Below are positions 3,113 to 54,279 of a stretch of 64,000 nucleotides of DNA, piece after piece. The notes below the pieces were generated by a model. The model saw only the letters and a list, made by a program, of their open reading frames with translations. It was not told the DNA's origin and did no database searches. How positions within the stretch are numbered: the first letter of the stretch is position 1; each line of letters starts with the position of its first letter. This DNA comes from Candidatus Omnitrophota bacterium (GTDB taxonomy: Bacteria > Omnitrophota > Gorgyraeia > Gygaellales > Profunditerraquicolaceae), in the NCBI GenBank assembly GCA_003598025.1, contig QZKH01000003.1, forward strand, positions 375,221 through 439,220, given 5' to 3'. A program made the position numbers and the translations under genes.

Positions 3113-4487
3113 CAGTAACCATCTTAGTGCCGTAAGATAAAAGCTGTTTTGAACGCAAAAGACTCCTGGCTTCCGAATAGATCCGCATTATCGGTTCTGT
3201 GCCCGAACCCCTGAACATCAGCCAGCCTTCATCCTCACAAATCAATTTTATGCCGTCAAAATCCTTTATCTGCACAACCTTCTTGCCCAATATTTCTTTT
3301 GGCAGGACCAGGTCTTTGATATCGACCATTGTTTTTAGGCGGAGGTCATTTCTCAAATAATAATATTTACCAAATTTTTTCTCTGTCTCTTCAAGGATCT
3401 TTCTTATGTCTTTGTTCCGGTAAACCATCATCTCAAGAAGCAATAAACCTGCAACAGTGCCATCGCGTTCAGGGATATATCCTTTTACCCCCATACCTCC
3501 TGCCTCTTCGCCTCCTGTTACGATATCCTCTTTCTCCATAAGATTTGATATGTACTTAAAACCAACCGGGGTTTCATATAATTTTACTTTCAGGGCATCA
3601 GCGATATTATCAATCATGGTCGAGCCGGCGATAGTTTTTACGATACCACCTGACCAGCCGCGGTCCTCATGCAGATGCAATGCAAGCAAGCCTAGTATTT
3701 TCTGCGGATGTATAAAAAGCCCTCCTGGAGCAACAGCTGCGATCCTGTCTGCATCACCGTCTAAGGCTATGCCCAGGTCAAATTTTCCATCTTTTACCCT
3801 TCTTTTTAACTCAGCAAGATTGTCTTCGATCGGTTCCGGCCCGCGGCCGCCGAAAGCCGGATTCACATCATTCCTGATAAACTCAATCTTTATATTTGTA
3901 CCTTTAAGCACCTGGCTTATATAACTGTCCCCTGAACCATGCATTGAATCTACAAGCACCTTGAATTTCTTGCTTTTTATACGTTTGAAATCAATATAAT
4001 TCCTGATAAAACTTATATAATCATTAACCATATTGTATTCTTTTATTTGAACAGAGTCAGTGCTGTCTTTAACAACAGGATTCTTACCGAGAAGCCCTTC
4101 AACTTCAGCAGTTACTTCAGGCCCGGCAGCCCCTCCGGCAGAATTTTTTATTTTAAAACCATTGTATTCGGGAGGGTTATGCGAGGCGGTTATCATTATT
4201 CCCAAATCAAGCTTCTTATTCTTCACCGCAAAGCTTAACGTAGGAGTAGGTATTGCCCTATCAGAAAGCAATACAGAATGCTTGTTATTGCTTAACACCT
4301 TGGATACGATTTTAGCGAATTTATCGGACATAAAACGCGTATCAAAACCCACCGCTACTTTTTTTGGCCCTGACAAATAATCTGAAACAGCCTGAGAAAC
4401 TATTTTAAGATTCTCGAATGTATAGTTGTCTGCTATGACGCCGCGCCAGCCGTCAGTCCCGAATTTTATTTCATCCCTGTCCTTCAT
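3102..4487 (-). CDS. Phosphoglucomutase/phosphomannomutase family (alpha-D-phosphohexomutase)
   Basis: Active-site phosphoserine loop GIMITASHNPPEYNGFK. 461 aa. Confidence 0.75.
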   Translation of the reverse strand: MKDRDEIKFGTDGWRGVIADNYTFENLKIVSQAVSDYLSGPKKVAVGFDTRFMSDKFAKIVSKVLSNNKHSVLLSDRAIPTPTLSFAVKNKKLDLGIMITASHNPPEYNGFKIKNSAGGAAGPEVTAEVEGLLGKNPVVKDSTDSVQIKEYNMVNDYISFIRNYIDFKRIKSKKFKVLVDSMHGSGDSYISQVLKGTNIKIEFIRNDVNPAFGGRGPEPIEDNLAELKRRVKDGKFDLGIALDGDADRIAAVAPGGLFIHPQKILGLLALHLHEDRGWSGGIVKTIAGSTMIDNIADALKVKLYETPVGFKYISNLMEKEDIVTGGEEAGGMGVKGYIPERDGTVAGLLLLEMMVYRNKDIRKILEETEKKFGKYYYLRNDLRLKTMVDIKDLVLPKEILGKKVVQIKDFDGIKLICEDEGWLMFRGSGTEPIMRIYSEARSLLRSKQLLSYGTKMVTDVL

Positions 4488-6961: not shown

Positions 6962-8011
6962 TTAGATCAAAAGAACCAGGTTGTCACAATGTATTATCTC
7001 TTTAGGGAAACGCCTGCCTTTTATTTTATCGACTTCTTTCTCGGAAAAGTCAGCTCTGCCCCGGGCAAATTCATTATTTTCGGAATCAATGATACTTACC
7101 ACATCTCCGCGCTCAAAAGAGCCTTTAGTGGCAATTACACCAACAGATAATAGGCTCTTCTTCCTTAACAGTGCTTCCTTTGCACCGTCATCAACTACGA
7201 TCTTGCCTAAAGGGTTTGTTCCATGCGCTATCCAATGCTTCCTGGAACTAAGCTTATTTTGAGATAAAAATAGAGTTCCGCTGCCCTCAGGGTCAATTAA
7301 TACGGAATTTATGATACCTGGCTTTCTTCCATTTGCTATAACGCATGGGATACCTGAATCAATAGCGATTTTGGCAGCTTCAAGCTTGGTAATCATGCCT
7401 CCGACGCAGGTCTTTTTACTGGTCGGACATGCTAATTCTTTAATCTGAGATGTAATCTGAGTAACCAGGCTGATTAACTTTCTCTTTTTATCCAGCAATC
7501 CATCAACATCAGAAAGTATTATAAGCAAATCAGCTGAAATTAATTTTGCCACAAGCGCTGATAACCTGTCATTATCCCCAAACTTAATCTCATTTGTGGA
7601 TACAGTGTCATTTTCATTTACTATCGGAAGGCTCTTATATTTAAGCAGGGCAAGCAAGGTTTCTCTTGCTCTTAAATAACGCTTACGGTCATTAAAATCT
7701 TCCCAGGTAAGAAGCACCTGTGCTGTTCTTGTTTTACCATTAAAGAATCCCCGGTAAGCGCTCATTAATTCGTTCTGCCCAATAGCTGAAGAGGCCTGTA
7801 AAGCGCTCATTTGCCTTGGCCTTTCCTTTAACCCCAAGGCACGCACTCCGCATGCAATAGCCCCGGAAGACACCAGCACAACCTCTTTCTTGCCGTCAAT
7901 AAGCGATTGCACCTGGGCGCATACTTCATAAAGCGCATCGAGCTCCAAAGATTCGCTACCGCCAAATATACTGCTACCGATTTTTATAACGATCCTCTTA
8001 AAGTTTTTCAT
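6962..8011 (-). CDS. proB: Glutamate 5-kinase with C-terminal PUA domain
   Basis: IVIKIGSS...VSSGAIA amino-acid kinase motifs. C-terminal PUA-like segment. Confidence 0.85.
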   Translation of the reverse strand: MKNFKRIVIKIGSSIFGGSESLELDALYEVCAQVQSLIDGKKEVVLVSSGAIACGVRALGLKERPRQMSALQASSAIGQNELMSAYRGFFNGKTRTAQVLLTWEDFNDRKRYLRARETLLALLKYKSLPIVNENDTVSTNEIKFGDNDRLSALVAKLISADLLIILSDVDGLLDKKRKLISLVTQITSQIKELACPTSKKTCVGGMITKLEAAKIAIDSGIPCVIANGRKPGIINSVLIDPEGSGTLFLSQNKLSSRKHWIAHGTNPLGKIVVDDGAKEALLRKKSLLSVGVIATKGSFERGDVVSIIDSENNEFARGRADFSEKEVDKIKGRRFPKEIIHCDNLVLLI

Positions 8012-11194: not shown

Positions 11195-12940
11195 CTATCT
11201 CTTCTTATTTTTCTTCTTGTTTTCCGGATCCGGATATCCTATGCCCTCAGGAGTAAGCCCAACCCGCTCCTCATATTTAGAAATATTCTCTACTGAGAAA
11301 TCTATATCCCGTATAACTCTGACAGTAATAAAGATCAATAAATCTATTTTTTGAGTATCAATTGTTTCTCTTTTAAACAATAAACCCAAAAGCGGGATCT
11401 TATTCAAGAACGGAACACTCAAGATCTGTTTCTTCTTAACATCTTTAAGCAGGCCTCCGATTACAATCGTCTCTCCATCCCTCATTAAGATACGCGTCTC
11501 AGCTTCTCTGGTATCGATTATCGGATAGGCGTTTGTACCAAGCGTGCTCGTATAATCAGTAACAGCAGGATGTATAACCATATTGATATCATCATTAGCT
11601 CCTACTTGAGGCACCACGTTAAGCTGAATACCAATATCCTGATAATAATCCAAAGTAACCTGTGTAGTCGCTGTTTCGGTGCCGGATATTTCAGTCTTGA
11701 GTATAGGATACCTGGTTCCTACAAGAATACTGGCCTCCTGATTATTAAGCGTTACTATGCTCGGGGACGATAACACATTGCTTCCGCTAGTTTCTTCCAC
11801 GGCATGTAAGATAGCCTCAAATTCATAACCGGTCAGTTTTTTAAAAATCAACTCCAGGCCGGCCTTGTAAGGATATGTACCGGGAAAAGTAGTTGTTCCT
11901 TCCGTCGGGCCAAAGACTGTAGGCGTAAATTCGGAAGCCAAATTTCTTCCGGCGACTGTCCGCGTATTACCTTTGTTGACGCCGATATCTTCAGGGGCCG
12001 TTGCATAACTTGAAGCTCCCGCGCTTCCTGTACCTAAATCAAGACCGATATCTTTAAGCTTATCCCGGTTTATCTCCACAACTTTTGTCTGGATTAAGAC
12101 CTGCTTGGGTTTAATATCTATCTTATCAATTACCTCCTTTAACTTATCCATAATCGGAGGTATATCGCTGACTATAAGTATTTTGGAACGGCTAAGTTTA
12201 TCTTCTGACGCCCTCTTTCTTTTTCCGAGTTCAGACCCTCCGAATTCCCAACCGGCCTGCCCTGTCATTTCCAAAACAGTGATCTTACCCCTTGATGATA
12301 ATTGTGGGTCAAGAGCCTTTTTTGCATCCTGCGCGTCAATATACTTTAAATTAAATACTTCAGTAACCGTCGGCTGAACCTGTGCCAACTCAACCTCTTG
12401 CTTCTTAAGCACAGTCAATTTTTCAATTGGCGCTACGGTTATAATATTAGCTTGTTTCTCGTAACCAAAACCATAGGTCCTTAAGATAACATCCAAAGCC
12501 TTTTCCCACGGTACATCAACCAACCTGATTGTGACATTACCTATAACCTCAGGAGTGGTAACAATATTTACTCCGGATTTATAAGAAATTATCTTGAGTA
12601 CATTACGGATATCAGCTTCTTTAAAATCTAATGTTACGTTCCTTGAAGCAGCTAAATCATCAATCACCGCTTCCTGTTTTTCTACAGGCTCAGTTTTTGC
12701 CTGTTCGGCAACCATGCCTTCATTTTCCATGGTTACTGCAGCAGGCGCTTCTTCAGTGCCGCTTATTGCAATCGGGGCTCTCGCATCCTGAACTAGCATC
12801 CCATGGGCTTCTTCCGGCAGCTGTTTTTTCTCTTGGTCCTGGCTAAATACACGGGTAGCGCCAAACGCTAATATTGAAGCAATTATCAGCGCTAAGATAA
12901 AATTGCGCTTATACATAGTAAAGACCCGGATAAATTTCAT
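11195..12940 (-). CDS. pilQ: Type IV pilus secretin
   Basis: Signal peptide, AMIN/secretin-N repeats (NVTLDFKEADIRNVLKII..) and a C-terminal secretin domain. It follows pilMNOP. Confidence 0.8.
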   Translation of the reverse strand: MKFIRVFTMYKRNFILALIIASILAFGATRVFSQDQEKKQLPEEAHGMLVQDARAPIAISGTEEAPAAVTMENEGMVAEQAKTEPVEKQEAVIDDLAASRNVTLDFKEADIRNVLKIISYKSGVNIVTTPEVIGNVTIRLVDVPWEKALDVILRTYGFGYEKQANIITVAPIEKLTVLKKQEVELAQVQPTVTEVFNLKYIDAQDAKKALDPQLSSRGKITVLEMTGQAGWEFGGSELGKRKRASEDKLSRSKILIVSDIPPIMDKLKEVIDKIDIKPKQVLIQTKVVEINRDKLKDIGLDLGTGSAGASSYATAPEDIGVNKGNTRTVAGRNLASEFTPTVFGPTEGTTTFPGTYPYKAGLELIFKKLTGYEFEAILHAVEETSGSNVLSSPSIVTLNNQEASILVGTRYPILKTEISGTETATTQVTLDYYQDIGIQLNVVPQVGANDDINMVIHPAVTDYTSTLGTNAYPIIDTREAETRILMRDGETIVIGGLLKDVKKKQILSVPFLNKIPLLGLLFKRETIDTQKIDLLIFITVRVIRDIDFSVENISKYEERVGLTPEGIGYPDPENKKKNKKR

Positions 12941-43253: not shown

Positions 43254-44486
43254 TTAACCCTTCGTGCTTTTGGAGATTTTCCTTTGTAAATCCAGGACCT
43301 TCTTATGCCTCATATTCTTTTCCTGCGCATCGATGTTATCGGCAAATTTTAAGGCTTCGGTATGAGGCCGCGGAGAATATTTGAATATGTAGGCTGAGTT
43401 AAATTCAACTTCTTTGACTAAATTGTAGGTATCCATAAAATCTTCTTCGGATTCACTGGGAAAGCCTACGATAACATCAGTAGTTAATACCCCATTTTTA
43501 ACTATTTTACGATAATTAGACACTAAATCCAAATAGAATTTTCTGGTATAACCCCTATTCATCAAATTAAGTATCTTATCAGAACCTGACTGCACCGGCA
43601 AGTGCAGTGATTTCTTGAGCTTGTCAAAGCCTGCCACTGCCTTAAAAAGTTCATTTGTTGTATCCCTAGGATGCGAAGTAAGGAAACTAAATTCCTTTAG
43701 CCCTTTAACCCTATTAACCATTTCCAATAATTTAACAAAATCTATGAACTCTGAACCATGAACTATGAACTTATAGGCGTTTACGTTCTGCCCCAATAGT
43801 GTAATACTCGTTATTCCTTTATCAATTGCCTGCTCAATTTCCTTGATTATATCCTCTGGCTTTCGCGAACGCAAATTTCCCCTGACATAAGGGACAACAC
43901 AATAAGAACAATAATTTTCGCAGCCTTCTGAAATTACCACAAAAGCATGATTCTTATCCGCATAAAATCCGGTATGATAAATCTCATCGGGCCTCACCAG
44001 ACTATCCGTTTCCCAAATTTTCTTCTCAAACATGCTTTTACCATTAACCATGAACTGTGAACCATGAACAAGTATCTCTATTATCCCCGGTATCTTATGT
44101 ATATCCGTTGGGCCAACAACAAAATCCACATTAGGCGCTATCTCAAAAACCTTATCTTTATAATTCTGCGCCATACACCCCACAAGGCCAATTATTGGTG
44201 ACTTTGTGACTTTGTGACTTTGTGACTCATTTTTGTAGGCACCTATCTGGCTCCAGACCCTATCCTCCGCATGCTGCCTAACCGCGCAGGTATTCAGGAT
44301 TATTACATCAGCAGCCTTAGGATCAGTTGATAGTTCATAGTTCATAGATCGTAACAAACCAGCGATAACCTCCGAATCCCGCGCATTCATTTGACATCCG
44401 AAGGTGCGCAAAAGCACTCGTAACTTCTTCTCGCTTTTGCCCCCGGAATTGCCTGATTTGTCGTCTTTTCGCTCATTTTCAACCAT
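43254..44486 (-). CDS. miaB: tRNA-2-methylthio-N6-dimethylallyladenosine synthase (MTTase). The N-terminus is atypical and overlaps the recombinase gene.
   Basis: RTFGCQMN MTTase motif, radical-SAM CENYCSYC and a TRAM-like C-terminus. It contains in-frame 7- and 8-nt tandem repeats. Confidence 0.75.
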   Translation of the reverse strand: MVENERKDDKSGNSGGKSEKKLRVLLRTFGCQMNARDSEVIAGLLRSMNYELSTDPKAADVIILNTCAVRQHAEDRVWSQIGAYKNESQSHKVTKSPIIGLVGCMAQNYKDKVFEIAPNVDFVVGPTDIHKIPGIIEILVHGSQFMVNGKSMFEKKIWETDSLVRPDEIYHTGFYADKNHAFVVISEGCENYCSYCVVPYVRGNLRSRKPEDIIKEIEQAIDKGITSITLLGQNVNAYKFIVHGSEFIDFVKLLEMVNRVKGLKEFSFLTSHPRDTTNELFKAVAGFDKLKKSLHLPVQSGSDKILNLMNRGYTRKFYLDLVSNYRKIVKNGVLTTDVIVGFPSESEEDFMDTYNLVKEVEFNSAYIFKYSPRPHTEALKFADNIDAQEKNMRHKKVLDLQRKISKSTKG

Positions 44487-46066
44487 TTTGTCCCCTCTTC
44501 ATAGCAAGTCTTCCACGGCTCATTCAGCTCGAACTTCACGATCTCCTGATTCTGGATGTGAATCGACTTGAAGATGATCCGCATAAAGGTTTTGACCAGA
44601 TAATCCAACTGGTGGTCATCCGGCGTGTTCCGCAACCTCAAAAGGAAATCCTGCGTCGCCTTAACAAGGTTTGCGGAATTGCGCTTATCCAGAATCTTGA
44701 GCTGAATCGCCTTGATATCCTGCTTTAGTTTTTTCTCTTCATTACTTAAAAGCTCTGCTCTTTCCTTGTAGAGCGCAAGATTAATCTTATCCTCCGAGAA
44801 AAGCTCGTAAATCCCCCGTTGCTTCTCAATATTTTTCTTAAGATGCGCTTCCTTCTCCTCCAATTGTTCAATGTATAATTGCTCCGGCTCAGAAGCGCTT
44901 AATTTGATCATGTCACCCAACTCCTCGATGACATGGATATTCTTTCGGATGACTTCAATAATATCCCATATCGGCCTATTGAGCGCGTCAGCCGTAACCG
45001 ATTTATTATTGCACTTAATATGCGGAATGCCCTTCGATGAGCAACGATACCACGGCCTGCGCATCTTGGTGCGATGATTAACGGTAGACATAATTCCGCG
45101 ATAATTACCGCCGCATTCATTGCACTTTATGATTCCAGAAAGATGATAAACATTATTTCTAAACCTAACCACGCCATTGGTGCGGTTCCGTTTAAGAAGC
45201 TCTCTTGCCTCGTCAAAATCTTTTTGCGTGATGATCGCCTCGTGGGTATTGAATACTTCAATAATCTTCGAGGGATCGTTATTCACATACTTATACCCTT
45301 TACCTTCGCCGTTCTTAGTTTTCTCTTTTGTGTTGTAGCGGCGACGGTTCCACACCAGCATGCCCAGATAAACTTTGCTCTGCAGAATATTGGAGATGAA
45401 TTTGTTATAAAACCGGCCTCCCTGCCGCGATGGAATCCCGAGAGCGTAATAATGCCCGGCAATCTGCGAAGTGCTTTTGCCGCTGATATACATCGCATAA
45501 ATCTCTTTAACGATCTTTGCTTCCTCCGGATGGACTTCCAGTTTCTTGGCGTCTTTATTATATCTGTAGCCATACGGCGCATACCTCGCGCCCTGCCAGT
45601 GGCCACGCTTAACCCCTACGACCATGCCGGGAAATACGCGCTCAACCAGACGATTGCGTTCAAACTCTGCGCAACTACCAAGCATCTGAATCGCCATCTT
45701 TCCCGCGCTGGACGTAGTATCAAACGGTTCGGTGGCTGATTTATATCCGATACCAAGTGAATCAAACTCCTCAAGCAATCCCAGCAGATCCTTGAGCCGC
45801 CTGCTTAAACGATCTTGTTTGTAGACCAAAACAAGATCAAATTGTTTATTACGCGCGTCAAACAAAAGCCGCTGAAGCGCCGGTCTGTCCATATTCCCGC
45901 CGGAATAGCCATCATCCACATAAACATCCCTGCCTGACATGGTACAAATAACATCCCAGGTGAAATTTTTCGCGTATTGCAAAAGATATGCCCTCTGAAC
46001 CTCCAGCGAAAAGCCTTCCCGCGCCTGATCCTCTGTGCTGACTCTTGTATATAACGCTACTCTCAT
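44387..46066 (-). CDS. Large serine recombinase (integrase)
   Basis: N-terminal resolvase catalytic domain MRVALYTRVSTEDQ with the catalytic Ser, a recombinase domain, a Zn ribbon (CNECGG) and a coiled coil. 559 aa. Confidence 0.85.
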   Translation of the reverse strand: MRVALYTRVSTEDQAREGFSLEVQRAYLLQYAKNFTWDVICTMSGRDVYVDDGYSGGNMDRPALQRLLFDARNKQFDLVLVYKQDRLSRRLKDLLGLLEEFDSLGIGYKSATEPFDTTSSAGKMAIQMLGSCAEFERNRLVERVFPGMVVGVKRGHWQGARYAPYGYRYNKDAKKLEVHPEEAKIVKEIYAMYISGKSTSQIAGHYYALGIPSRQGGRFYNKFISNILQSKVYLGMLVWNRRRYNTKEKTKNGEGKGYKYVNNDPSKIIEVFNTHEAIITQKDFDEARELLKRNRTNGVVRFRNNVYHLSGIIKCNECGGNYRGIMSTVNHRTKMRRPWYRCSSKGIPHIKCNNKSVTADALNRPIWDIIEVIRKNIHVIEELGDMIKLSASEPEQLYIEQLEEKEAHLKKNIEKQRGIYELFSEDKINLALYKERAELLSNEEKKLKQDIKAIQLKILDKRNSANLVKATQDFLLRLRNTPDDHQLDYLVKTFMRIIFKSIHIQNQEIVKFELNEPWKTCYEEGTKWLKMSEKTTNQAIPGAKARRSYECFCAPSDVK

Positions 46067-46067
46067 T

Positions 46068-46838
46068 TTATACCCTTTGCGCCTTACGTAATTCTATGAA
46101 CTCCTCATCGCTAATTTCCTTATTTTCATAAACAGTTTCATCCCGTAATAAATTTTGTCCTTTGACCGTTTCAACACGATGTCCGTAGCCAGTTAAAATA
46201 CAATGTGGGATTATCATTTCCTTAACAAACGGATTTTCCTCAGCAGTCTTCTTTATATATATTTCACCAGGTGACCAGAAATAGATATCTTCTCTTGCGC
46301 CTACCGCAAAAAAATATGTCGTAATATCATAAATTATTTTTAAAGCGCTTAAAGTTTTGGCCTCAATGTCTTCCAGCTTATTAAAATGAATAACTTCGTG
46401 CCGAATATCTTTAAGCTCCATATACTTCACTTTTATCTCATCTGAGATAATTACCTTCCAATCACATAATATGTCTACCGATTTCGACCAATCATCGAAT
46501 GAATCTTTTCTATATATATGCTTGTAGTGTTCACTAGATTTATAATGATCTCGAAGTCGCAGTAAAAGAATATTAAAAATCCTTTCGCCCAAACAACATG
46601 CGGAGGTTAATGCGGGATAATATAAACCATAAATGAAGCAATCCTCTATTTCTTGCAGTAAATCATGATATTCAGTAATTACCCGTAACGAAGGTGGCTT
46701 AAAAGACATATATCTCTCAAATTTTTCATCAAGATTCAAATCGCCGTAACGACTAGCAACATGCTGTTTTATTTCCTGCGGCACAGGAATATTTCTAATG
46801 CAATCAATAAAGAAATTTGTTGCCCTATATCGCTTCAT
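46068..46838 (-). CDS. Uncharacterised 256-aa cargo protein of the element
   Basis: No motif recognised. It lies between the Xis-like gene and the integrase, with a 1-bp gap to the integrase gene. Confidence 0.4.
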   Translation of the reverse strand: MKRYRATNFFIDCIRNIPVPQEIKQHVASRYGDLNLDEKFERYMSFKPPSLRVITEYHDLLQEIEDCFIYGLYYPALTSACCLGERIFNILLLRLRDHYKSSEHYKHIYRKDSFDDWSKSVDILCDWKVIISDEIKVKYMELKDIRHEVIHFNKLEDIEAKTLSALKIIYDITTYFFAVGAREDIYFWSPGEIYIKKTAEENPFVKEMIIPHCILTGYGHRVETVKGQNLLRDETVYENKEISDEEFIELRKAQRV

Positions 46839-46845
46839 CCCTAAA

Positions 46846-47040
46846 TCACCCTTCTTTTAACGTCTCCCGCCACTCTTTAATCTTGGCGATACACTCATCC
46901 GTAAACACCGGCCAGTCTTTATAATCGCGTTTGGGTTTGACCCAGCCTTTGCGGATCCAATTGATCATGGTCTGGCGGTGCACACCCAACATCTTTGCAG
47001 TCTCTGTCATGGTGTAAGTTTTCATATTTGGCATCCTCAA
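46846..47040 (-). CDS. Excisionase/AlpA-like small HTH DNA-binding protein
   Basis: TMTETAKMLGVHRQTMINWIRKGWVKP is a helix-turn-helix of the Xis/MerR-like type. 64 aa. Confidence 0.55.
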   Translation of the reverse strand: MRMPNMKTYTMTETAKMLGVHRQTMINWIRKGWVKPKRDYKDWPVFTDECIAKIKEWRETLKEG

Positions 47041-47073
47041 CTATTGGTGCCCAGTATACCGTAATATACAACC

Positions 47074-47295
47074 TTATACAAGTGGTTTTTTCTCCGCGGA
47101 ATAAATCGTCATAAACATTTTTGCAAGCGTTTCAATCCCCTCAAAGAATGACTTTCGGGCTTCTTGGATTTCGGCACAAGACAAACCGCGGCTTTTAAGC
47201 TTTATCTCTAAAGCCTCCCAGCCCCGCAGGGTAACCGCCTGATCCTTATTTGTGCTTACATCCTTGTCCATTTTTCCCACTGCCCAATAGGACAT
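47074..47295 (-). CDS. Hypothetical small protein (73 aa)
   Basis: ORF only. Its start codon is embedded in the inverted repeat 47290-47326. Confidence 0.3.
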   Translation of the reverse strand: MSYWAVGKMDKDVSTNKDQAVTLRGWEALEIKLKSRGLSCAEIQEARKSFFEGIETLAKMFMTIYSAEKKPLV

Positions 47296-47371
47296 TCGGA
47301 CATCGCAAATGTCCGGTTGTGTCCGGTTTTACTGACATACTGACATCCAAAATGTCAGAGGATGTCAGTCA
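47290..47371. promoter_or_regulatory. Two operator-like composite inverted repeats in the element's regulatory region
   Basis: First: GGACAT-tc-GGACAT-cgcaa-ATGTCC-ggttgt-GTCCGG. Second: CTGACAT-a-CTGACAT-ccaaa-ATGTCAG-agg-ATGTCAG. Both have tandem direct half-sites mirrored. Confidence 0.45.
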
Positions 47372-47715
47372 AAACGCCATCCAAAACCCATGAAATCCCC
47401 CAAATTTGACCTTTTTCCCTCAAAAAACGCCTATTTCAGCAACTTTTGACCCGATTTTAACGTTCTCCCGATAACCCCATATGACATGACATCGCTTTTT
47501 TAAAATTTTGTATCACTGACAAACTGCGCCTCGCCCGACCCGCGGCCGACACCTCCTTGGAAGGACCCGTGAACCGGCCTTAAGCTACCAGTGACAACAA
47601 TGACATTTTTTCTCATGGTTATCTTTTTACTTCCCGCACTCAATCCTCCTGCTCCTTACTCCCAACCTACGAACACAATTAATGAAAATTTCTGTCATAA
47701 TCGTCATAGCTGTCA

Positions 47716-49845
47716 TTAGAATGGCCGCTCCGAATAATCAACCTCACCCTCCTTGCGGATGCGTATGCCGTCCCATCGACGCGATGCGCCACACCGCCCT
47801 CTATTGATAACGGTATATTGACGCAAGATCTCTCGGCCAAACATGATCTTGCTAAGCGGACGGTATTCGCTCTCAAGGCACCAGTCCCGGTAAGCCACAT
47901 ACAGGGCGTCATAGCTTACGTCTGCCTGAGCATCCAAAATGCACTGCTCCTCAACGAAAATAATGACGTTATTGTTCTCCTTGCGATAGGCGTCCTTCAC
48001 GGTCTGCATCGATGCGCTCTCCTCGAAATACCCGCGTTTTCGTAAACGCGTAAGGCCGTTAAGAGACCACAAGAAAATACCGTCCAATTCACTGGCCACG
48101 ATCTTGTGCTTTAACTTGGGATCACGTTCCTCTATGGAAAACTGCCGGTTAAAAGGAAGAATCAAAAGACGCCGGTAATACCCTTCGGTCTTATCCCCCA
48201 CGCGCGGCATGTTATTAGTTGAGAAAAGAAGCTTGCAGTAAGGTTTGAACTGAAACGGCTGGCCGTATTTTTCGTCAGCGGAGATCGTATCGCCGGTCAC
48301 GATCGCCTTGAACATGTTGTCATAGACATTTGTCTTGGCATTGGTTTCAAGGCTGATATTGACCAGTTTGTCCCGAAGCCGGGCGATGTAATGGGAATCG
48401 TTAAACTTCTCAAGCGGAATGGATGAGCAATTATCCTTGCCGATAAGCTCCTCGAGTACATACAAAACAACGCTCTTGCCGTTGGCCCCCTCGCCAAACA
48501 AAAAGAGCGCCTTTTCATAATCATTGTCTCGGGTGAGGCAATAGCCGAAATACTCCTGCAAAAGCATAATCCGGGCCGCGTCGCTTTCGAATATCTGATC
48601 AAGACTCTTCTGCCACAACAAACACTCGGCGTTCTCGCGATATGTCACATTAAGCTGGTTGATGGAATAGACGTCCGCCGAATGCGGCAAGAGCTTCATC
48701 TTGTCGATGTCATAAAGCCCGTTTTTGACATTAAAGAGCGTGATGCCATTAATGATGTCCGGCTTGATGAAAGTCTCGGTCTTAAGAGCAACCAGAACAT
48801 TGCGAAGCTTGCTCGCCGAAAACCCGGCCCCGCACGCATCCTTGATCCACTTCTGAACCTCCTCGATAAAGAGCGGCCGGTAACATCCGCCTTTATATTC
48901 GTAATAGGTGTCAGCGAAGTTGATTAGCCGATGATGTTTGAGGATTTCGTCAGCGACCTCATTGGCATTAACCTTTCTGGCTATCAGCAGGCTTGGTCGC
49001 GATGGCGTATAAACCTCACGACAATCATTCACCGCCTTTTCGATAACCGACTGACCATAAGTCCGGCCATCTCCGAAATGCTTTTCATCCCACTTGGGCC
49101 GCATAAGGCCGGACTGCCGGAATAACGCATCCATCTGCCCGGAGTCTTTGCCTGTCCAAAACGCCAGCTTATTGCAGAGTGCCAGATCCGCTTCACTTTG
49201 AGAGGGATAATCATTCTGCCATTGGCCGGAATAAAGCCGCTGAAATCTCTCCGCGTCTTTGCTCTTGGCGATTAAGGAAAGGATCTCGTTCGCGGGAGCT
49301 TTATCTACAAACCGACCGAATATGTCTTTAAGCGCATCGGTACATTCTTTCAGTTCAGCCGGATAGTTTTCAAGGCGGTTGCCGGTAACGGTAAAGAATC
49401 GGCCCTTTGTATAAATCTCCAAGCCGATCTTTGAAATCTTGCAGGCCCGGGCAATCTTGCCCTTACAAAGAATATGAATACCGGTGCCGCTTGGCGAATA
49501 CTCGGAATAGGAATTTAGCGCCTTGAGAATCTCAACCGCATAAGGCACGATGGCTCCATCTTTGACGCAATGATCGATATCCACGCCCACATATGGTGGC
49601 TGGAATACAAAGCCTACTCCCGCATACCCGCGCTGAAGCGCAAGATCGCTTGCGGTCGTATAATCCGTCCATGTGCTTGGATCGTTTGTTTTGGCAGGAC
49701 GTCCGCTCAGGACGTTCATCGGGACCTTGTCGGTGCGGTCTTTATTGCGCCTAAGCTCGTACCCAACCCAACAAGACAATTTGAGCAGTTCCTGAGGAAT
49801 AACCTCTTCCATCGTTCTCTTCTCTTTTCTTCTCTCGTCTTCCAT
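47716..49845 (-). CDS. Primase-helicase with an N-terminal prim-pol/bifunctional primase domain and a C-terminal P4-family/D5-like SF3 helicase
   Basis: The N-terminus YAGVGFVF..DIDH..SPSGTGIHIL is a primase-polymerase fold. The C-terminal Walker A GEGANGKS places it in the P4 alpha/D5 family. 709 aa. Confidence 0.8.
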   Translation of the reverse strand: MEDERRKEKRTMEEVIPQELLKLSCWVGYELRRNKDRTDKVPMNVLSGRPAKTNDPSTWTDYTTASDLALQRGYAGVGFVFQPPYVGVDIDHCVKDGAIVPYAVEILKALNSYSEYSPSGTGIHILCKGKIARACKISKIGLEIYTKGRFFTVTGNRLENYPAELKECTDALKDIFGRFVDKAPANEILSLIAKSKDAERFQRLYSGQWQNDYPSQSEADLALCNKLAFWTGKDSGQMDALFRQSGLMRPKWDEKHFGDGRTYGQSVIEKAVNDCREVYTPSRPSLLIARKVNANEVADEILKHHRLINFADTYYEYKGGCYRPLFIEEVQKWIKDACGAGFSASKLRNVLVALKTETFIKPDIINGITLFNVKNGLYDIDKMKLLPHSADVYSINQLNVTYRENAECLLWQKSLDQIFESDAARIMLLQEYFGYCLTRDNDYEKALFLFGEGANGKSVVLYVLEELIGKDNCSSIPLEKFNDSHYIARLRDKLVNISLETNAKTNVYDNMFKAIVTGDTISADEKYGQPFQFKPYCKLLFSTNNMPRVGDKTEGYYRRLLILPFNRQFSIEERDPKLKHKIVASELDGIFLWSLNGLTRLRKRGYFEESASMQTVKDAYRKENNNVIIFVEEQCILDAQADVSYDALYVAYRDWCLESEYRPLSKIMFGREILRQYTVINRGRCGASRRWDGIRIRKEGEVDYSERPF

Positions 49846-49847
49846 CG

Positions 49848-50078
49848 TTACACTCCGTTTTGAAATAGATAATCTTTAACCCTTCGGTAACAATCAAACA
49901 GCTTGCGCGCCTCTGAATCGGCATAAAAGTCCTCGCAGGCCTTATGAACAGCCGGGATGTCGTCAAACAAGACCCGCTTAAGCCTCCCCGAACCTTCAAT
50001 ACCCCGCATGGCAAACCCGCAATAAAGTAAATACGTAGCCAAATAGAGATTCCCTGCCTCAAAATGCTTGTTTTTCAT
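49848..50078 (-). CDS. Hypothetical small protein (76 aa) upstream of the primase gene
   Basis: ORF in operon position, 2-bp gap to the primase start. The ORF track also lists an alternative overlapping 103-aa ORF. Confidence 0.3.
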   Translation of the reverse strand: MKNKHFEAGNLYLATYLLYCGFAMRGIEGSGRLKRVLFDDIPAVHKACEDFYADSEARKLFDCYRRVKDYLFQNGV

Positions 50079-50093
50079 AGTTTCAATGCCTCC

Positions 50094-50357
50094 TACTAGC
50101 TACATACGCAAGGATTTGGAAAACTGACGGAAATATTTTCATTTTTTTCGACCCTCTACTAGCTACATACGACGTTTTTTGTAAAACTGACGGAAATATT
50201 TTCACTTTCTTCACCACTTTCACTCCCCTAAGCGTATATTCCCCTTTTTCCCGAAAAGTGTCGGAACTTTCTGCCCCCTCATAGGTGATTACGCAAAATT
50301 TCCAAAAGTGTCGGGGCTCTCACCTATGTACACGCAATATTTTTCAAAGTGTCGAAC
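50094..50357. repeat. Iteron-like direct repeats (putative origin of the element)
   Basis: Two 48-bp direct repeats (50094-50141 and 50157-50204, sharing CTACTAGCTACATACG...AAAACTGACGGAAATATTTTCA). Three copies of AAAGTGTCG(G/A) at about 50253, 50303 and 50344. ATAGGTGA/TCACCTAT flanks the middle copy. Confidence 0.5.
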
Positions 50358-50414
50358 TGCCCTTCTACTAACCCATACAGGAACTTTCCCGAAACTGGCG
50401 TAACTATTTACGCC

Positions 50415-50456
50415 TAACAAGAAAAAGCCATCTCCGGCCAATTGACTGGAAATGGC
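50415..50456 (-). terminator. Rho-independent terminator of the ars operon
   Basis: Stem GCCATTTCC-loop-GGAGATGGC, followed on the minus strand by TTTTTCTTGTT. Confidence 0.45.
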
Positions 50457-50611
50457 TTTTCCCGCACAGGCGAAACAGTGATCAGCTGTCCCGTAAGTCT
50501 ATTTTAATTTTATAACAGCGCGAATCTTTCTCAAGGGGGTCGTTACTACAAAATAGCAATAATTAGAAGAGGGCCTTTTTGCTAAAAAAGGCTTTTGGAA
50601 GGAGTAATTCT

Positions 50612-51037
50612 TTATATTGACTTAATCCACTCTTTGATTTTTACTTCTATCTGATCTCTGACCTCTTTTGTTTTCTTCAGCTTCTCTTCCGGCGATCCAG
50701 TAAAAGCGGATGGGTCCGGGAATCCCCAGTGAAGTTTTTGCGCAATGCCCGGGAATATCGGGCACCTCTCCGATTGCGATTCATCGCAGACGGTAACCAC
50801 ATAATTGTAGAGTTTGCCTTGCTTATAAAAATCAAACACACTCTTGGTTTTATTCTGCGAAATATCGATCCCGGCGTCTTTCATCGCCTCGACTACAACG
50901 GGATTGAGCTTGCCCGGCTCAAGGCCTGCGCTCTCCACCTCAAAACGATCGCCTGCATATTTCTTCAAGAATGCCTCTGCCATCTGCGAGCGCGCAGAGT
51001 TGTGAATACATACAAACAAAACCTTTTTCTTATCCAT
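50612..51037 (-). CDS. arsC: Arsenate reductase, LMW-PTPase family (thioredoxin-coupled)
   Basis: P-loop CIHNSARS (CX5R) and downstream Cys residues. 141 aa. Confidence 0.8.
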
Positions 51038-52130
51038 GGCTACCGCCCGATAATTTAAACCAATTTTGGGTTCTCAAACAAACCTTAACCAGCATCAGCA
51101 TCACCGGCACTTCGATAAGGACTCCTACAACCGTTGCCAGTGACGCTCCGGATGAAAGTCCGAAAAGAATTGTCGAAGTGGCGATAGCCACCTCAAAGTG
51201 ATTGCTCGCCCCTACCAACGCCGACGGTGCCGCATCCCGATACGACAGCTTCAACCATTTTGCCAAAGCATATGTTATGGCGAAAATAAGGCAGGTTTGA
51301 ATGAAAAGCGGTATCGCTATAAGAAAAATTATTTGCGGCTGGTTAATGATCAACTCCCCCTTAAAAGAAAACAACAAAACCAGCGTCAATAGCAATGCGC
51401 ATATCGAAACCGGCGTCAGATAATGCAGGAATTTCTCCTCAAACCACTTGAATCCTTTCTTGGCGATCAGCAATTTTCTTGAGTAATAGCCCAGGAGTAG
51501 CGGTAACCCGACATAGATCACCACTGACAATACGATTGTCTGCCACGGAATAGGCATTTTATTCACACCCAAGAGCCATCCACCAAGCGGCGCATACAGA
51601 AACAGCATTGTGAGGGAATTGATAGCTACCATAACAAGCGTGTGGCCGTCGTTTCCTCTAGCCAAATGCCCCCAGATCAGAACCATGGCCGTGCATGGCG
51701 CTATGCCTAACAAAATGCATCCTGCGATATACGACCGAAACAATTCGACCTGCGCCCCGCCTTTAACAATCTCCATCCCCGGAAGCCACCCTTTAAACAA
51801 TACCCCAAGGAAAAGCCATGCGATCGCAAGCATCGTAAACGGTTTTATGCACCAGTTCACAACTAAAGTCAGAATAACCGGCTTAGGCGCCTTTCCTGCT
51901 TTAATGACCTCCGCAAAATCAATCTTGACCATGATCGGGTACATCATGAAGAATAGGCAGATTGCGATAGGAATAGACACTTGATAAATCGAGATCTGAT
52001 CCAACGCCACCGCCACCTGCGGAAACAACTTGCCCAAAGCGATCCCAATTCCGATACAAAGCACTACCCATCCAGTGAGATACTTCTCGAAAAAGCTTAA
52101 TTTTCGTTCCTCATGAATAACGTGTTCCAT
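51030..52130 (-). CDS. acr3: Arsenite efflux transporter ACR3
   Basis: ACR3/ArsB-type membrane protein. Ten predicted TM helices. 366 aa. Confidence 0.8.
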
Positions 52131-52139
52131 CCGCCCTCC

Positions 52140-52826
52140 TTAAAATAACCGCAGGATATAAATTCCTGTGTAATAAAGACCGACAAGAATAAAAATCACC
52201 CCGGTAATTCTACGGGTAAAAAATTCCAGCTTCGTGATCTTATTAAACCAATGGCTCATTGAAGTCACGCCCAATGCGATAGCGACAGCGAACACCAGCA
52301 CCGGAAGTCCTGTCCCTATCCCATAAATAAACGGCAATAGCGTCCCTGCTTTGCTATTAAGCGCTAATGGTATCAAACTGCCGAAGAATAACGCCGCTGA
52401 AACCGGACAAAACGCTAAAGCGAATATCAATCCCAAAAGAAAAGCGCCGGGAGCTCCGGACTCAACAAGTTTATTGTGATGTTTTTGAGACAATGCCACA
52501 CCGGGCAATTTTATCGTGATCACTTCAAGTAAAAATAATCCGGTGATTATCAAGAGAGGCCCTAAGGCCTTGACCATGTATTTCTGCAAAAACTGCGCCA
52601 CCTGCGGAACACTTAAAAGCGAACTGATAATGATCCAGCCAAGCACTGCATACGCCGCCATCCTGCCGAGCGTATAAGCCAGTCCTGAAATGAATACCAT
52701 AACCGGATGCGCAATTTTCTTCGAGAGAAAAGACACCGCCGCGATGTTTGTCGCCAAGGGACAAGGACTGATTGACGTTAATATCCCCAGCCACAGCGCA
52801 GACCCCAAAGCGATCAATAGCTCCAT
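52140..52826 (-). CDS. ccdA: CcdA/DsbD-family thiol-disulfide electron transporter
   Basis: Six TM helices with conserved Cys in TM1 (ISPCP) and TM4 (AFCP). Confidence 0.65.
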   Translation of the reverse strand: MELLIALGSALWLGILTSISPCPLATNIAAVSFLSKKIAHPVMVFISGLAYTLGRMAAYAVLGWIIISSLLSVPQVAQFLQKYMVKALGPLLIITGLFLLEVITIKLPGVALSQKHHNKLVESGAPGAFLLGLIFALAFCPVSAALFFGSLIPLALNSKAGTLLPFIYGIGTGLPVLVFAVAIALGVTSMSHWFNKITKLEFFTRRITGVIFILVGLYYTGIYILRLF

Positions 52827-53245
52827 TATTGCGCGTCCTTCATAAATGCGTTTACCTCACCAGTCACGTAATCCATAAACTTTTGCTTATTGCGGGCAAG
52901 CTCCCAAATCTTGTCGAGATTTTTTGACTTTACTTCCTTGCCGTCCTTGACCAGAGAAAGAATGAGCGTTTTCGTATACAGCTTATAGTCATTTACGAAA
53001 TGTTCGTTGCCCTTCTCCTCGACATTAACCGCCTTAAACTCAAGCCCGCCGGAAGCAAGGGCATCCTTAAAGTTTGCATCAATCGCTTCTCTTGAGTATT
53101 TCTCCATTGCGGTGCATGTAGGACACCGAAACGATCCATGAAAATAATACGCTATGACTTTCGCCTGCGGGCTTGATTGCGCTAAAGCGAAAGACCCGGC
53201 ACTAAGTGCCGCAACAACCGCAAGAACCTGAATTATTCTTTTCAC
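52826..53245 (-). CDS. Exported thioredoxin-like protein (CPTC). The start is re-set to GTG at 53245 behind an AGGAGG SD. The ORF-track start is 53278.
   Basis: After re-setting the start the signal peptide is MKRIIQVLAVVAALSAGSFALAQ. CPTC redox motif. Confidence 0.45.
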   Translation of the reverse strand: MKRIIQVLAVVAALSAGSFALAQSSPQAKVIAYYFHGSFRCPTCTAMEKYSREAIDANFKDALASGGLEFKAVNVEEKGNEHFVNDYKLYTKTLILSLVKDGKEVKSKNLDKIWELARNKQKFMDYVTGEVNAFMKDAQ

Positions 53246-53483
53246 ATCCGCCTCCTGAAAGGATTGTTTTGATCTCATTCTTACTTAAGACTTTCCCGGA
53301 TGAAACCACCTTGCCGTCAATGGCCAGCCCGGGCGTCATCATGACACCGTATTCGGTGATCTTGTCGATATCCGTCACCTTACCGATCTCAGCTTGAATA
53401 TTTAATTCTTTCACAGCCGCCTCAGCATTCGCCGTAAGCTGTTTGCATTTAGGACAACCGACACCTAATATCTCAATTTTCAT
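53202..53483 (-). CDS. Small thioredoxin-fold 'redox-active disulfide protein 2'-like protein with a Cys-rich C-terminal tail (start trimmed to MKIEILG)
   Basis: MKIEILGVGCPKCKQL matches the Thioredoxin_3/TIGR00412 style. The C-terminus is GGGCEKNNSGSCGCCGT. Confidence 0.55.
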   Translation of the reverse strand: MKIEILGVGCPKCKQLTANAEAAVKELNIQAEIGKVTDIDKITEYGVMMTPGLAIDGKVVSSGKVLSKNEIKTILSGGGCEKNNSGSCGCCGT

Positions 53484-53496
53484 TTTAAGCCTCCAA

Positions 53497-54279
53497 TTAT
53501 TTTTTAACTGCCGCAACCTTTACGCTAGCTATTGCATCTTGGGCGGCATCAAGATTATCAAACATAGCGTCTACTGGATAACTTGACTCGCTTATAACCT
53601 TGACGTCCTTAAATCCCGCTTGTTTAATAAAACCCAGATATTCCTCTTTTTTAATGGCTCCGGCAAGGCATCCCACATACGCCTCAACAGAATCTTTGAT
53701 TTTTTTCGGCAGATCTTTCGCCAATACCAAGTCCGAAACCATCAGCCTACCGCCTGTTCTTAAAACCCTATAAGCCTCCTTGAAAACCGCTTCTTTATCA
53801 GGCGAAAGGTTAATGACACAGTTTGAAATAATAACGTCAATGGAATTGTCCTCAACGGGTAATTTCTCAATCTCACCTAAACGAAATTCAATATTGGAAT
53901 ACTTACCCTTCTTAGCATTCTCATTCGCTTTAGAGACCATCTCGGGTGTCATATCAACGCCAATAACCCTGCCGGTCTTGCCAACTCGTTGTGCTGATAA
54001 GAAAGCGTCGAATCCCGCACCGCTCCCCAGATCAAGCACCACATCCCCTTCTTTTAACGAGGCCAGAGCAACTGGATTCCCACACCCAAAGCCTAAATTC
54101 GCCCCTTCGGGTACAGCGTTCATTTCAGATTCGCTATAGCCTACCTTTTTGCTGATGTCTTCCGCCTGTGTTACGCCGCCACAGCATGAACTTGATGAAC
54201 AGCATGATTTTTTCTGCGACAACGCTTTTGTATAGCCTTCTCTGACAATCTTTTTAATTTTATCCGCTTCGTTTCTCAT
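53497..54279 (-). CDS. arsM: Arsenite S-adenosylmethionine methyltransferase
   Basis: Class I SAM methyltransferase fold (VLDLGSGAG) with Cys clusters CCSSSSCC and GCGNP typical of ArsM. Confidence 0.8.
   Translation of the reverse strand: MRNEADKIKKIVREGYTKALSQKKSCCSSSSCCGGVTQAEDISKKVGYSESEMNAVPEGANLGFGCGNPVALASLKEGDVVLDLGSGAGFDAFLSAQRVGKTGRVIGVDMTPEMVSKANENAKKGKYSNIEFRLGEIEKLPVEDNSIDVIISNCVINLSPDKEAVFKEAYRVLRTGGRLMVSDLVLAKDLPKKIKDSVEAYVGCLAGAIKKEEYLGFIKQAGFKDVKVISESSYPVDAMFDNLDAAQDAIASVKVAAVKK

Follow-up and report, generated by a model that had tools for sequence, protein, structure and literature searches.

Introduction

Three anticodon nucleases, HepS, ApeA and DARNA, are solo HEPN proteins with sensors of their own (PMC13043305; bioRxiv 10.64898/2026.01.26.701840; 10.64898/2026.02.22.705581). 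HepS ("HEPN Solo"), from the Salmonella prophage Gifsy-1, has a canonical Rx4H motif and no antitoxin; its apo form is auto-inhibited, and a phage protein activates its cleavage of tRNA anticodons (PMC13043305). ApeA and DARNA/PD-T7-3 each join a HEPN RNase and a non-catalytic sensing domain in a single polypeptide and bring about abortive infection by tRNA cleavage (bioRxiv 10.64898/2026.01.26.701840; 10.64898/2026.02.22.705581). Here we describe a gene, hereafter the target, whose 256-residue product may be an effector of a similar kind. It lies in a stretch of 64,000 nucleotides (the window) from a Candidatus Omnitrophota bacterium (assembly GCA_003598025.1, contig QZKH01000003.1, positions 375,221 to 439,220), within a small integrated element that encodes a large serine recombinase. 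The exact protein is present as RJP29068.1, titled "hypothetical protein C4533_04525", from a Candidatus Omnitrophota metagenome-assembled genome.

The HEPN families of defence or abortive-infection (Abi) systems that have Pfam or PADLOC models include ApeA, PD-T7-3/DARNA, PD-T4-2, AbiD/F, AbiU2, AbiV, AbiJ and RnlA/LsoA; PADLOC-DB covers the ApeA and PD-T7 systems. Defence hotspots of P4-like satellites, P2 prophages and phage-inducible chromosomal islands (PICIs) were reportedly described by Rousset et al. in 2022, and a preliminary description of the window, made from its sequence, had read the target in the frame of P4-like satellites and PICIs. To our knowledge, immunity in Omnitrophota is essentially unstudied.

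The target is an optional cargo gene

The target is tightly packed between two genes of the element, with a gap of 1 nt to the downstream recombinase gene (start 46066) and a gap of 7 nt from the upstream Xis-like helix-turn-helix (HTH) gene (end 46846). The coordinates of the open reading frames (ORFs; Table 1) bear out the preliminary description in both distances as well as in the extent and length of the gene. A Shine-Dalgarno-like (SD-like) sequence, AAGGGTGA, is present upstream of the target start codon, and the SD-like sequence of the recombinase gene, AAAGGGTA, is carried within the last codons of the target. Because of these gaps and SD-like sequences, the Xis-like HTH, target and recombinase genes look like one translationally coupled operon. 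Homologues of the target number 253 in a 90%-clustered collection and 327 clusters in an exhaustive 50%-identity library, and nearly all of them are 255-290 residues long and align with the target from end to end. Since there are so many full-length homologues, the target is a real gene and not a chance ORF; its dN/dS (ratio of nonsynonymous to synonymous substitution rates) is 0.04-0.15 in the close clade for pairs with unsaturated dS, which indicates purifying selection and a functional gene. RNA-gene scans found no Rfam families or tRNAs anywhere in the window, and the scores of promoter and terminator scans were no higher than the shuffled expectation.

Loci found through the target are biased toward it, and related elements were therefore sampled also through the recombinase. 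Relatives of the recombinase number 475 at E<=1e-60, and many of them are 60-92% identical and come from Omnitrophota. The comparison of the slot between the Xis-like HTH and recombinase genes covers six distinct elements (L178, L179, L180, L181, L182 and L183/184), with recombinases 77-88% identical and Xis-like HTH proteins 85-95% identical. Nothing lies in the slot in L179, L180 and L182; in these elements the stop codon of Xis overlaps the recombinase start codon as TAATG. The slot is occupied by a small GIY-YIG gene in L178 (8675-9004, 109 residues) and in L183/184 (8521-8814 in L183, 97 residues), the two proteins being different, and by an unrelated ORF of 221 residues with a hydrophobic N-terminus and no family in L181 (8339-9004). 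A hidden Markov model of the target family gave no match at E<=10 in six-frame translations of the six recombinase-sampled loci. When the window was aligned to the empty-slot elements by blastn, positions 44364-46102 and 46851-47568 matched subject positions that lie next to one another, which makes the target a clean, precise insertion of about 750 bp relative to L179, L180 and L182. The apparent 33-nt overlap of the two blocks corresponds to a weak similarity of the 3' end of the target to the 3' end of the Xis gene, with no clear duplication, and no att-like or cassette repeats were found around the target in the window. The G+C content (GC) of the target is 34%, against 45% for the element, with local values of 0.33-0.37 where its flanks have 0.43-0.51. 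The other genes found in the slot also have a lower GC (0.34-0.38) than the recombinase.

Because the slot is empty or differently filled in close sister elements, we conclude that the junction between the Xis-like HTH and recombinase genes is a genuine variable cargo site and that the target is optional cargo rather than a core gene. Cargo in a hotspot is what the preliminary description had predicted, proposing a comparison of the equivalent position in related elements; presence in all of them, which it had named as speaking against cargo, is not what the comparison shows. It had placed the slot between the integrase/Xis genes and the replication genes, however, whereas the actual slot is between Xis and the recombinase.

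In the close clade of the target (at least 73% identity), a serine recombinase always accompanies the gene, with additional genes between the two in some cases (a UvrD-like helicase in L001 and a 204-residue membrane protein in L098). The sister elements also encode a complete Gabija system (GajA, 8e-168; GajB, 4e-255) and a DpnI-like methyl-directed restriction endonuclease (1.5e-114). These defence genes are located at the end distal to the recombinase (L178, 1-3150; L180, 1461-2258; L179, 1-3188; L182, 1-3775), which in sister elements also carries N6/N4 methyltransferases with a ResIII helicase. The element family may thus have a second cargo region, at its recombinase-distal end. The occurrence of Gabija and a DpnI-like endonuclease in the same element family fits an anti-phage or accessory role of the target.

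The predicted fold and active site are those of HEPN proteins

The full-length protein was modelled with AlphaFold from a 42-sequence alignment (predicted local distance difference test, pLDDT, 91; predicted template-modelling score, pTM, 0.85), and the core was modelled separately (pLDDT 93). The predicted core consists of helix 1 (residues 55-69), helix 2 (73-99), a short-helix insert (100-132), helix 3 (133-151) and helix 4 (158-177). The part outside this core is predicted to comprise residues 1-54 (46677-46838), which form a beta-hairpin and two helices, and the C-terminal alpha/beta residues 178-256, where G191, P203, P211 and D244 are conserved. Structure searches gave no fold matches outside the HEPN core. 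A PD-(D/E)xK nuclease in the C-terminal module was considered and rejected, as E192 is poorly conserved (151 of 229 sequences).

Residue conservation, counted over the same 229 family sequences, is close to complete at the positions expected of a HEPN active site. R146 is present in 228 sequences and H151 in all of them, and in 82% the residue after the arginine is N (110) or H (78). In helix 2, E85 is invariant, while R86 is found in 222 and N89 in 227 of the sequences, so that the local motif is E-R-x-x-N and not the typical Ex3[KR]. HEPN proteins are defined by a core of four helices in which an insert separates helix 2 from helix 3, an Rx4-6H motif where helix 3 ends or the helix 3-helix 4 loop begins, a polar residue (N, D or H) after the arginine, and a conserved acidic residue in helix 2, typically as Ex3[KR] (Anantharaman et al. 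2013, PMC3710099). The target shows all four: the core topology, the position of Rx4H, the polar residue after R and the acidic residue of helix 2.

Foldseek searches with the full-length model placed HEPN proteins on top (2q00; Csm6, 6tug, as number 2; HepT, 6m6w; TM0613), with E-values of 0.6-2. With the core-only model, the top 15 PDB matches were all HEPN proteins, of the families reached with the full-length model too, with template-modelling (TM) scores of 0.57-0.67 under both normalisations and probabilities of 0.9-1.0. The best of these were 2hsb, 8xeh, 2q00, 1o3u, 1wwp and 5yep; AbiV (9bj7, TMq 0.49) and Csx1 were lower, distant matches. Pfam scans run member by member gave recurrent sub-threshold matches to six HEPN-clan families (DUF3644, DUF4145, HEPN_Swt1, HEPN_Cthe2314, HepT-like and HEPN_Apea), of which DUF3644 and DUF4145 are listed as HEPN families (PMC3710099). 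In hhalign comparisons with two bona fide HepT neighbours, RHEVIHF of the target was aligned with RNILIHGY, with the Rx4H motifs in register. A core-only profile searched against a set of 5.8 billion proteins recovered only three fragments of the target's own family and no HEPN-annotated remote relatives. Elongator Elp5, arenavirus GP2 and Arp7 appeared among the PDB sequence and profile matches at chance level only and were discarded. From the models and the motifs combined, the target family very probably has the HEPN fold and the HEPN active site. The preliminary description had named a replication initiator, a repressor or a structural protein as relatives that would speak against cargo; no such homology was found, and the sole affinity is to the HEPN RNase superfamily.

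Distribution and neighbourhoods of the family

The family is spread broadly and patchily over Omnitrophota, the Candidate Phyla Radiation (CPR/Patescibacteria), Proteobacteria, Planctomycetes, Chloroflexi and other groups, and homologues stand alone in the chromosomes of Halomonas, Bradyrhizobium, Massilia and others. Clustering of the four genes on either side at 146 non-redundant loci revealed no conserved partner gene. The only families that recurred were large serine recombinases (9 loci), N6/N4 methyltransferases (6) and Xis-like HTH proteins (4, all in the close clade), and more than 90% of the loci have no recombinase nearby. The commonest domains of 149 immediate neighbours were serine recombinases (6), tyrosine integrases (3) and AAA_16 (3), followed by DUF4062, HepT, AbiEii-like AAA_21, NACHT and DUF5677, each found twice; methyltransferases and restriction endonucleases also occurred, and the listed top families of these neighbours included no NTP_transf (MNT antitoxin) family. 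One locus resembles a defence island, with MazG-like, McrB_N, TIR and Mrr genes. Family members were also seen in a CPR prophage, beside the prophage's serine recombinase, and in P2-like prophages between the repressor region and tail gene D.

Two kinds of antitoxin were considered and rejected. The Xis-like HTH protein is not a candidate because the same HTH gene directly precedes the recombinase gene in elements that have no target. An RNA antitoxin was rejected because there are no upstream tandem-repeat arrays, Tandem Repeats Finder having found only 4 trivial arrays and no RNA-antitoxin repeat array in 135 upstream regions, and because only 7 nt separate the target from Xis in the window. 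An XRE-HTH domain is fused to the N-terminus of one long family member, and for a few members a winged-HTH gene overlaps from upstream; both arrangements suggest transcriptional control.

Proposed function and alternative explanations

We give about an even chance to the best-supported reading, that the target is a solo RNase of the HEPN superfamily that has its own sensor module and acts in abortive infection. It would be co-transcribed with the integration operon of an integrative, self-replicating element of about 6 kb. The HEPN cores of two subunits would pair their R146-x4-H151 motifs into a metal-independent RNase site, a composite site that E85, R86 and N89 of helix 2 may assist. The alpha/beta module (residues 1-54 and 178-256) would hold the enzyme inactive until an infection cue is sensed. 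Once activated, the enzyme would cleave host or phage RNA, by analogy perhaps tRNA anticodon loops, and the cleavage would lead to growth arrest or abortive infection and so protect the element and the host population. The analyses above show the reality of the gene, its cargo status, the fold, the near-invariant motif, the lack of a conserved partner, and contexts that have a flavour of mobile elements or defence, while enzyme activity, trigger, RNA substrate and a role against phages are inferred. An anti-phage or toxin function is plausible.

Several observations weigh against this proposal. No model of Pfam, NCBIfam, PADLOC (0 families at E<=1) or PHROG matches the target protein, just as the preliminary description had recognised no family, and PDB searches with the single sequence, with 42- and 89-sequence profiles and with a core-only profile gave nothing above chance. 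The Foldseek run that the preliminary description had proposed did put HEPN structures on top, but its best E-value of 0.08 is not significant. The hhalign alignment reached only P=0.055 (0.63 for the reversed control), and no comparison of sequences or profiles tied the target to a curated HEPN family with statistical significance. Four-helix bundles are common and likeness of fold alone is weak, so that the case is one of fold combined with motifs. The sensor role of the non-HEPN module is a conjecture. None of 50,697 sequenced phage records and only 2 of 72,556 plasmids contain a member of the family. Finally, plain housekeeping genes are common among the neighbours, many homologues lie amid such genes, and only about a fifth of the neighbourhoods are defence-like or typical of mobile elements.

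The setting of the gene can be explained in other ways. Its place within the Xis-target-recombinase operon, its patchy distribution, its low GC and its insertion-like behaviour would also suit an element-maintenance ("addiction") or selfish toxin, that is, a HEPN RNase that penalises loss of the element or spreads selfishly and has no role in phage defence, and GIY-YIG, a class that includes selfish homing endonucleases, is another frequent occupant of the slot. We nevertheless consider this explanation unlikely: no antitoxin candidate was found, as the upstream HTH protein is Xis, which belongs to the element itself and occurs also without the target, the 146 loci share no partner and show no RNA-antitoxin repeats, and most homologues lie outside recognisable mobile elements. 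The position exactly between Xis and recombinase, at distances typical of translational coupling, would also suit an RNase that trims or degrades the Xis-recombinase transcript, or host miaB read-through, and thereby tunes integration and excision. The constant company of a serine recombinase in the close clade, and its standing as the only recurrent neighbour family-wide (9 of 146 loci), agree with such element-internal RNA processing. Yet elements with 86-88% identical recombinases work without the target, more than nine-tenths of the family loci have no recombinase nearby, and the homologues of Halomonas, Bradyrhizobium, Massilia and others are alone in their chromosomes, which leaves this role quite improbable.

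The same adjacency could be that of a recombination directionality factor (RDF) or an accessory subunit of the large serine recombinase, since the target adjoins a serine recombinase in the window, in L001, L095, L098 and L185, and in several CPR prophages; the RDFs known for serine integrases are a diverse set of proteins, 25-30 kDa in size. We rejected identity with an RDF because the target is missing from sister elements with 86-88% identical recombinases and near-identical Xis proteins. There is thus no obligate co-occurrence, a serine recombinase is within four genes at only 9 of the 146 loci, and an RDF would leave the conserved RNase-type catalytic residues unexplained; the idea retains scarcely any probability. 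A counter-defence or signal-degrading enzyme, which would cleave cyclic oligonucleotide messengers or host defence RNA and so help an element or prophage to establish itself, is very improbable as well. Such an activity is suggested by fold matches that include the HEPN domains of Csm6 and Csx1, from cyclic-oligoadenylate signalling systems, and by the carriage of the gene on mobile elements and prophages, but the gene was not found in sequenced phages, the protein has no CARF or other ligand-binding domain, and the neighbourhood survey revealed no association with type III CRISPR or CBASS. The RNA-processing, RDF and counter-defence explanations all lose weight because sister elements do without the gene and over 90% of homologues have no recombinase nearby.

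Returning to the solo RNase with its own sensor module, a more far-reaching version is possible, though on balance doubtful. The target could represent a new class of self-contained sensor-effector protein, in which a HEPN RNase is inserted into an alpha/beta module (an invariant MKRYR N-terminus and the C-terminal 80 residues) that directly recognises a phage component. Such a protein would ride in a previously undescribed defence hotspot, between Xis and serine recombinase, of small replicative elements that target miaB and spread Gabija and DpnI-like enzymes through Omnitrophota. If the solo HEPN reading is true, the family, with its roughly 330 clusters at 50% identity in many phyla, would be a widespread effector whose regulatory module is new, and it would offer another entry point into the sensing of infection by single-protein immune RNases. 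Should the prediction fail, the family would still represent a clearly bounded domain of unknown function, to be classed with the HEPN fold. The work also points to a family of small serine-recombinase elements of Omnitrophota beside miaB, with at least one well-defined cargo slot, and such a slot offers a practical "bait" with which to find more defence or selfish genes in lineages that are uncultivated.

The carrier element and its integration site

The gene set of the element consists only of DUF5659, the prim-pol/helicase, orf73, the Xis-like HTH gene, the target and the recombinase (Table 1). The Xis-like HTH gene is a conserved element gene, near-identical in L178-L183 including the elements that have no target, and homologues of the replication protein are present in L178, L181 and L185. 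The gene order is identical in the sister copy L185 (target at least 90% identical), where unrelated host genes directly precede DUF5659; the element therefore extends over roughly 44.4-50.6 kb of the window, about 6 kb.

Table 1. Positions in the window of the target, its predicted parts and the surrounding features
Feature	Position	Strand	Basis or remark
Target gene, cargo of the element	46068..46838	minus	ATG-initiated ORF, 256 aa, N-terminus MKRYRATNFFIDC
HEPN-like four-helix core, residues 55-177 (predicted)	46308..46676	minus	two AlphaFold models, Foldseek, translation
Rx4H motif RHEVIH (R146...H151), end of helix 3, predicted catalytic site	46386..46403	minus	translation, family conservation
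ERIFN (E85-N89), helix 2, with invariant acidic residue, R86 and N89	46572..46586	minus	translation, family conservation
C-terminal alpha/beta module, residues 178-256 (predicted)	46068..46307	minus	AlphaFold secondary structure
Large serine recombinase, 559 aa, integrase of the element	44387..46066	minus	Resolvase + Recombinase + Zn_ribbon_recom (Pfam)
Xis-like HTH_17/MerR small DNA-binding protein, 64 aa	46846..47040	minus	Pfam and PHROG excisionase matches
orf73, small element ORF	47074..47295	minus	no family in Pfam, NCBIfam, PADLOC, PHROG
Replication protein, 709 aa: prim-pol (NrS-1 HBD) + D5_N + DUF5906/SF3 helicase + Pox_D5	47716..49845	minus	Pfam
DUF5659 small protein, first gene of the element	49848..50078	minus	Pfam; same position in L185
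Host miaB (flank), conserved integration neighbour of the element family	43254..44486	minus	ORF
Non-coding left end of the element, ~530 bp	50083..50610	.	repeat-rich; host arsC beyond

The left attachment junction must fall within the non-coding left end. This region contains two direct repeats of 57 nt (50093-50149 and 50156-50212), each ending in the ribosome-binding-site-like sequence GCTAGTAG(A/G)GG, as well as three repeats similar to TTCCGACACTTT and a 34-nt palindrome (50408-50475), and is possibly an origin, an operator or the attL region. The best sigma-70-like promoter site of the region is also located there, on the minus strand (50534-50507).

At the other end, the 3' end of the recombinase ORF overlaps the miaB ORF by 100 nt in the window (44387-44486), and elsewhere it ends 4 nt into the miaB ORF (10683-10686 in L179, 10232-10235 in L180 and 10725-10728 in L183). 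Because the recombinase-miaB junction recurs in several Omnitrophota contigs (L179, L180 and L183/184), we conclude that the element family integrates site-specifically at the 5' edge of miaB. The C-terminus of the recombinase appears to be encoded partly by host-side DNA.

Some loci are arranged differently at this boundary. In L001, the module from the target to the serine recombinase lies between inverted copies of the 5' end of miaB and its upstream region (7302-7600 and 12117-12415; 299 nt, 85% identical) and resembles the inverted state of the usual recombinase-to-miaB arrangement. Comparable inverted miaB copies, nearly identical, surround the module in L098 (about 1080-1260 and about 4200-4430), and the site "...GGGCGATTTTGATGTTTTT..AAAAGCAGAT" is common to L001, where it lies just after the target, and L097/L098, where it lies just before it. 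The inverted copies and the shared site may reflect inversion driven by the recombinase or nested att sites; no such inverted miaB repeat is found in the window. Within the miaB coding region of the window there is an 8-nt tandem repeat, TTTGTGAC, in three overlapping 16-nt copies (44195-44226).

Between orf73 and the prim-pol gene, 420 nt (47296-47715) contain no convincing ORF. Small ORFs of L179, L180 and L182 are encoded by DNA with which part of this segment (up to 47568) shares about 82% identity, and in L185 an ORF of 208 residues takes up the position; the segment may be what remains of a gene or a further variable spot. Directly past the element, positions 50612-54279 hold what the translations suggest is an arsenic-resistance-type cluster, with a putative ArsC-like low-molecular-weight phosphatase, an ACR3-type efflux protein, a DsbD-like membrane protein, thioredoxin-like proteins and an S-adenosylmethionine-dependent methyltransferase with a Cys-rich N-terminus (ArsM-like).

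Comparison with known systems

The target matches no model of a HEPN defence or Abi family in PADLOC or Pfam, and AbiV is reached only as a distant fold match. Its likeness to HepS would be functional and architectural only: both are single proteins with an Rx4H motif and no antitoxin, HEPN-like by prediction in the case of the target, and both are accessory cargo of an integrated mobile element. There is no detectable sequence relationship between the two, HepS is not among the 50 PDB fold matches listed, and the target family differs in the extra alpha/beta module formed from its N- and C-termini, in its host phyla and in the type of element. The nearest structural neighbour of DARNA, Csm6 (6TUG), is also the second match of the full-length target model; DARNA, however, has 456 residues and an all-alpha Pds5-like C-domain, whereas the 256 residues of the target are predicted to form a small alpha/beta module around a central HEPN core. 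From ApeA and the PD-T7 systems the target is set apart in that their PADLOC models do not match it.

The best structural matches of the predicted core are HepT (DUF86) of the type VII HepT-MntA system and minimal HEPN proteins of the AF0298/TM0613 type. In contrast to HepT-MntA, the target has no MNT partner nearby, its neighbours in the window being Xis and the recombinase, and compared with HepT and the minimal HEPN proteins it has a longer insert between helices 2 and 3, N- and C-terminal modules, and no significant sequence match. The upstream tandem repeat array of type III (RNA antitoxin) HEPN systems such as AbiF was not found for the target family.

The element shares with the hotspots of P4-like satellites, P2 prophages and PICIs a fixed slot that holds different, unrelated genes in sister elements, which carry Gabija and a DpnI-like endonuclease; to this extent the P4-like or PICI frame of the preliminary description holds. 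The frame does not extend to the rest of the element, which uses a large serine recombinase and not a tyrosine integrase, has a prim-pol/SF3 (superfamily 3) helicase replication protein, resides in Omnitrophota hosts and has its slot between Xis and recombinase. No genes for capsid hijacking or remodelling or for packaging, by which a helper would be exploited, were seen in the element, and we know of no helper phage for it. The analogy with P4-like satellites and PICIs is therefore a loose one. Set beside these known systems, the target is a solid candidate for a new HEPN family with an extra accessory module, riding in a newly delimited cargo slot, and it is not surprising in kind.

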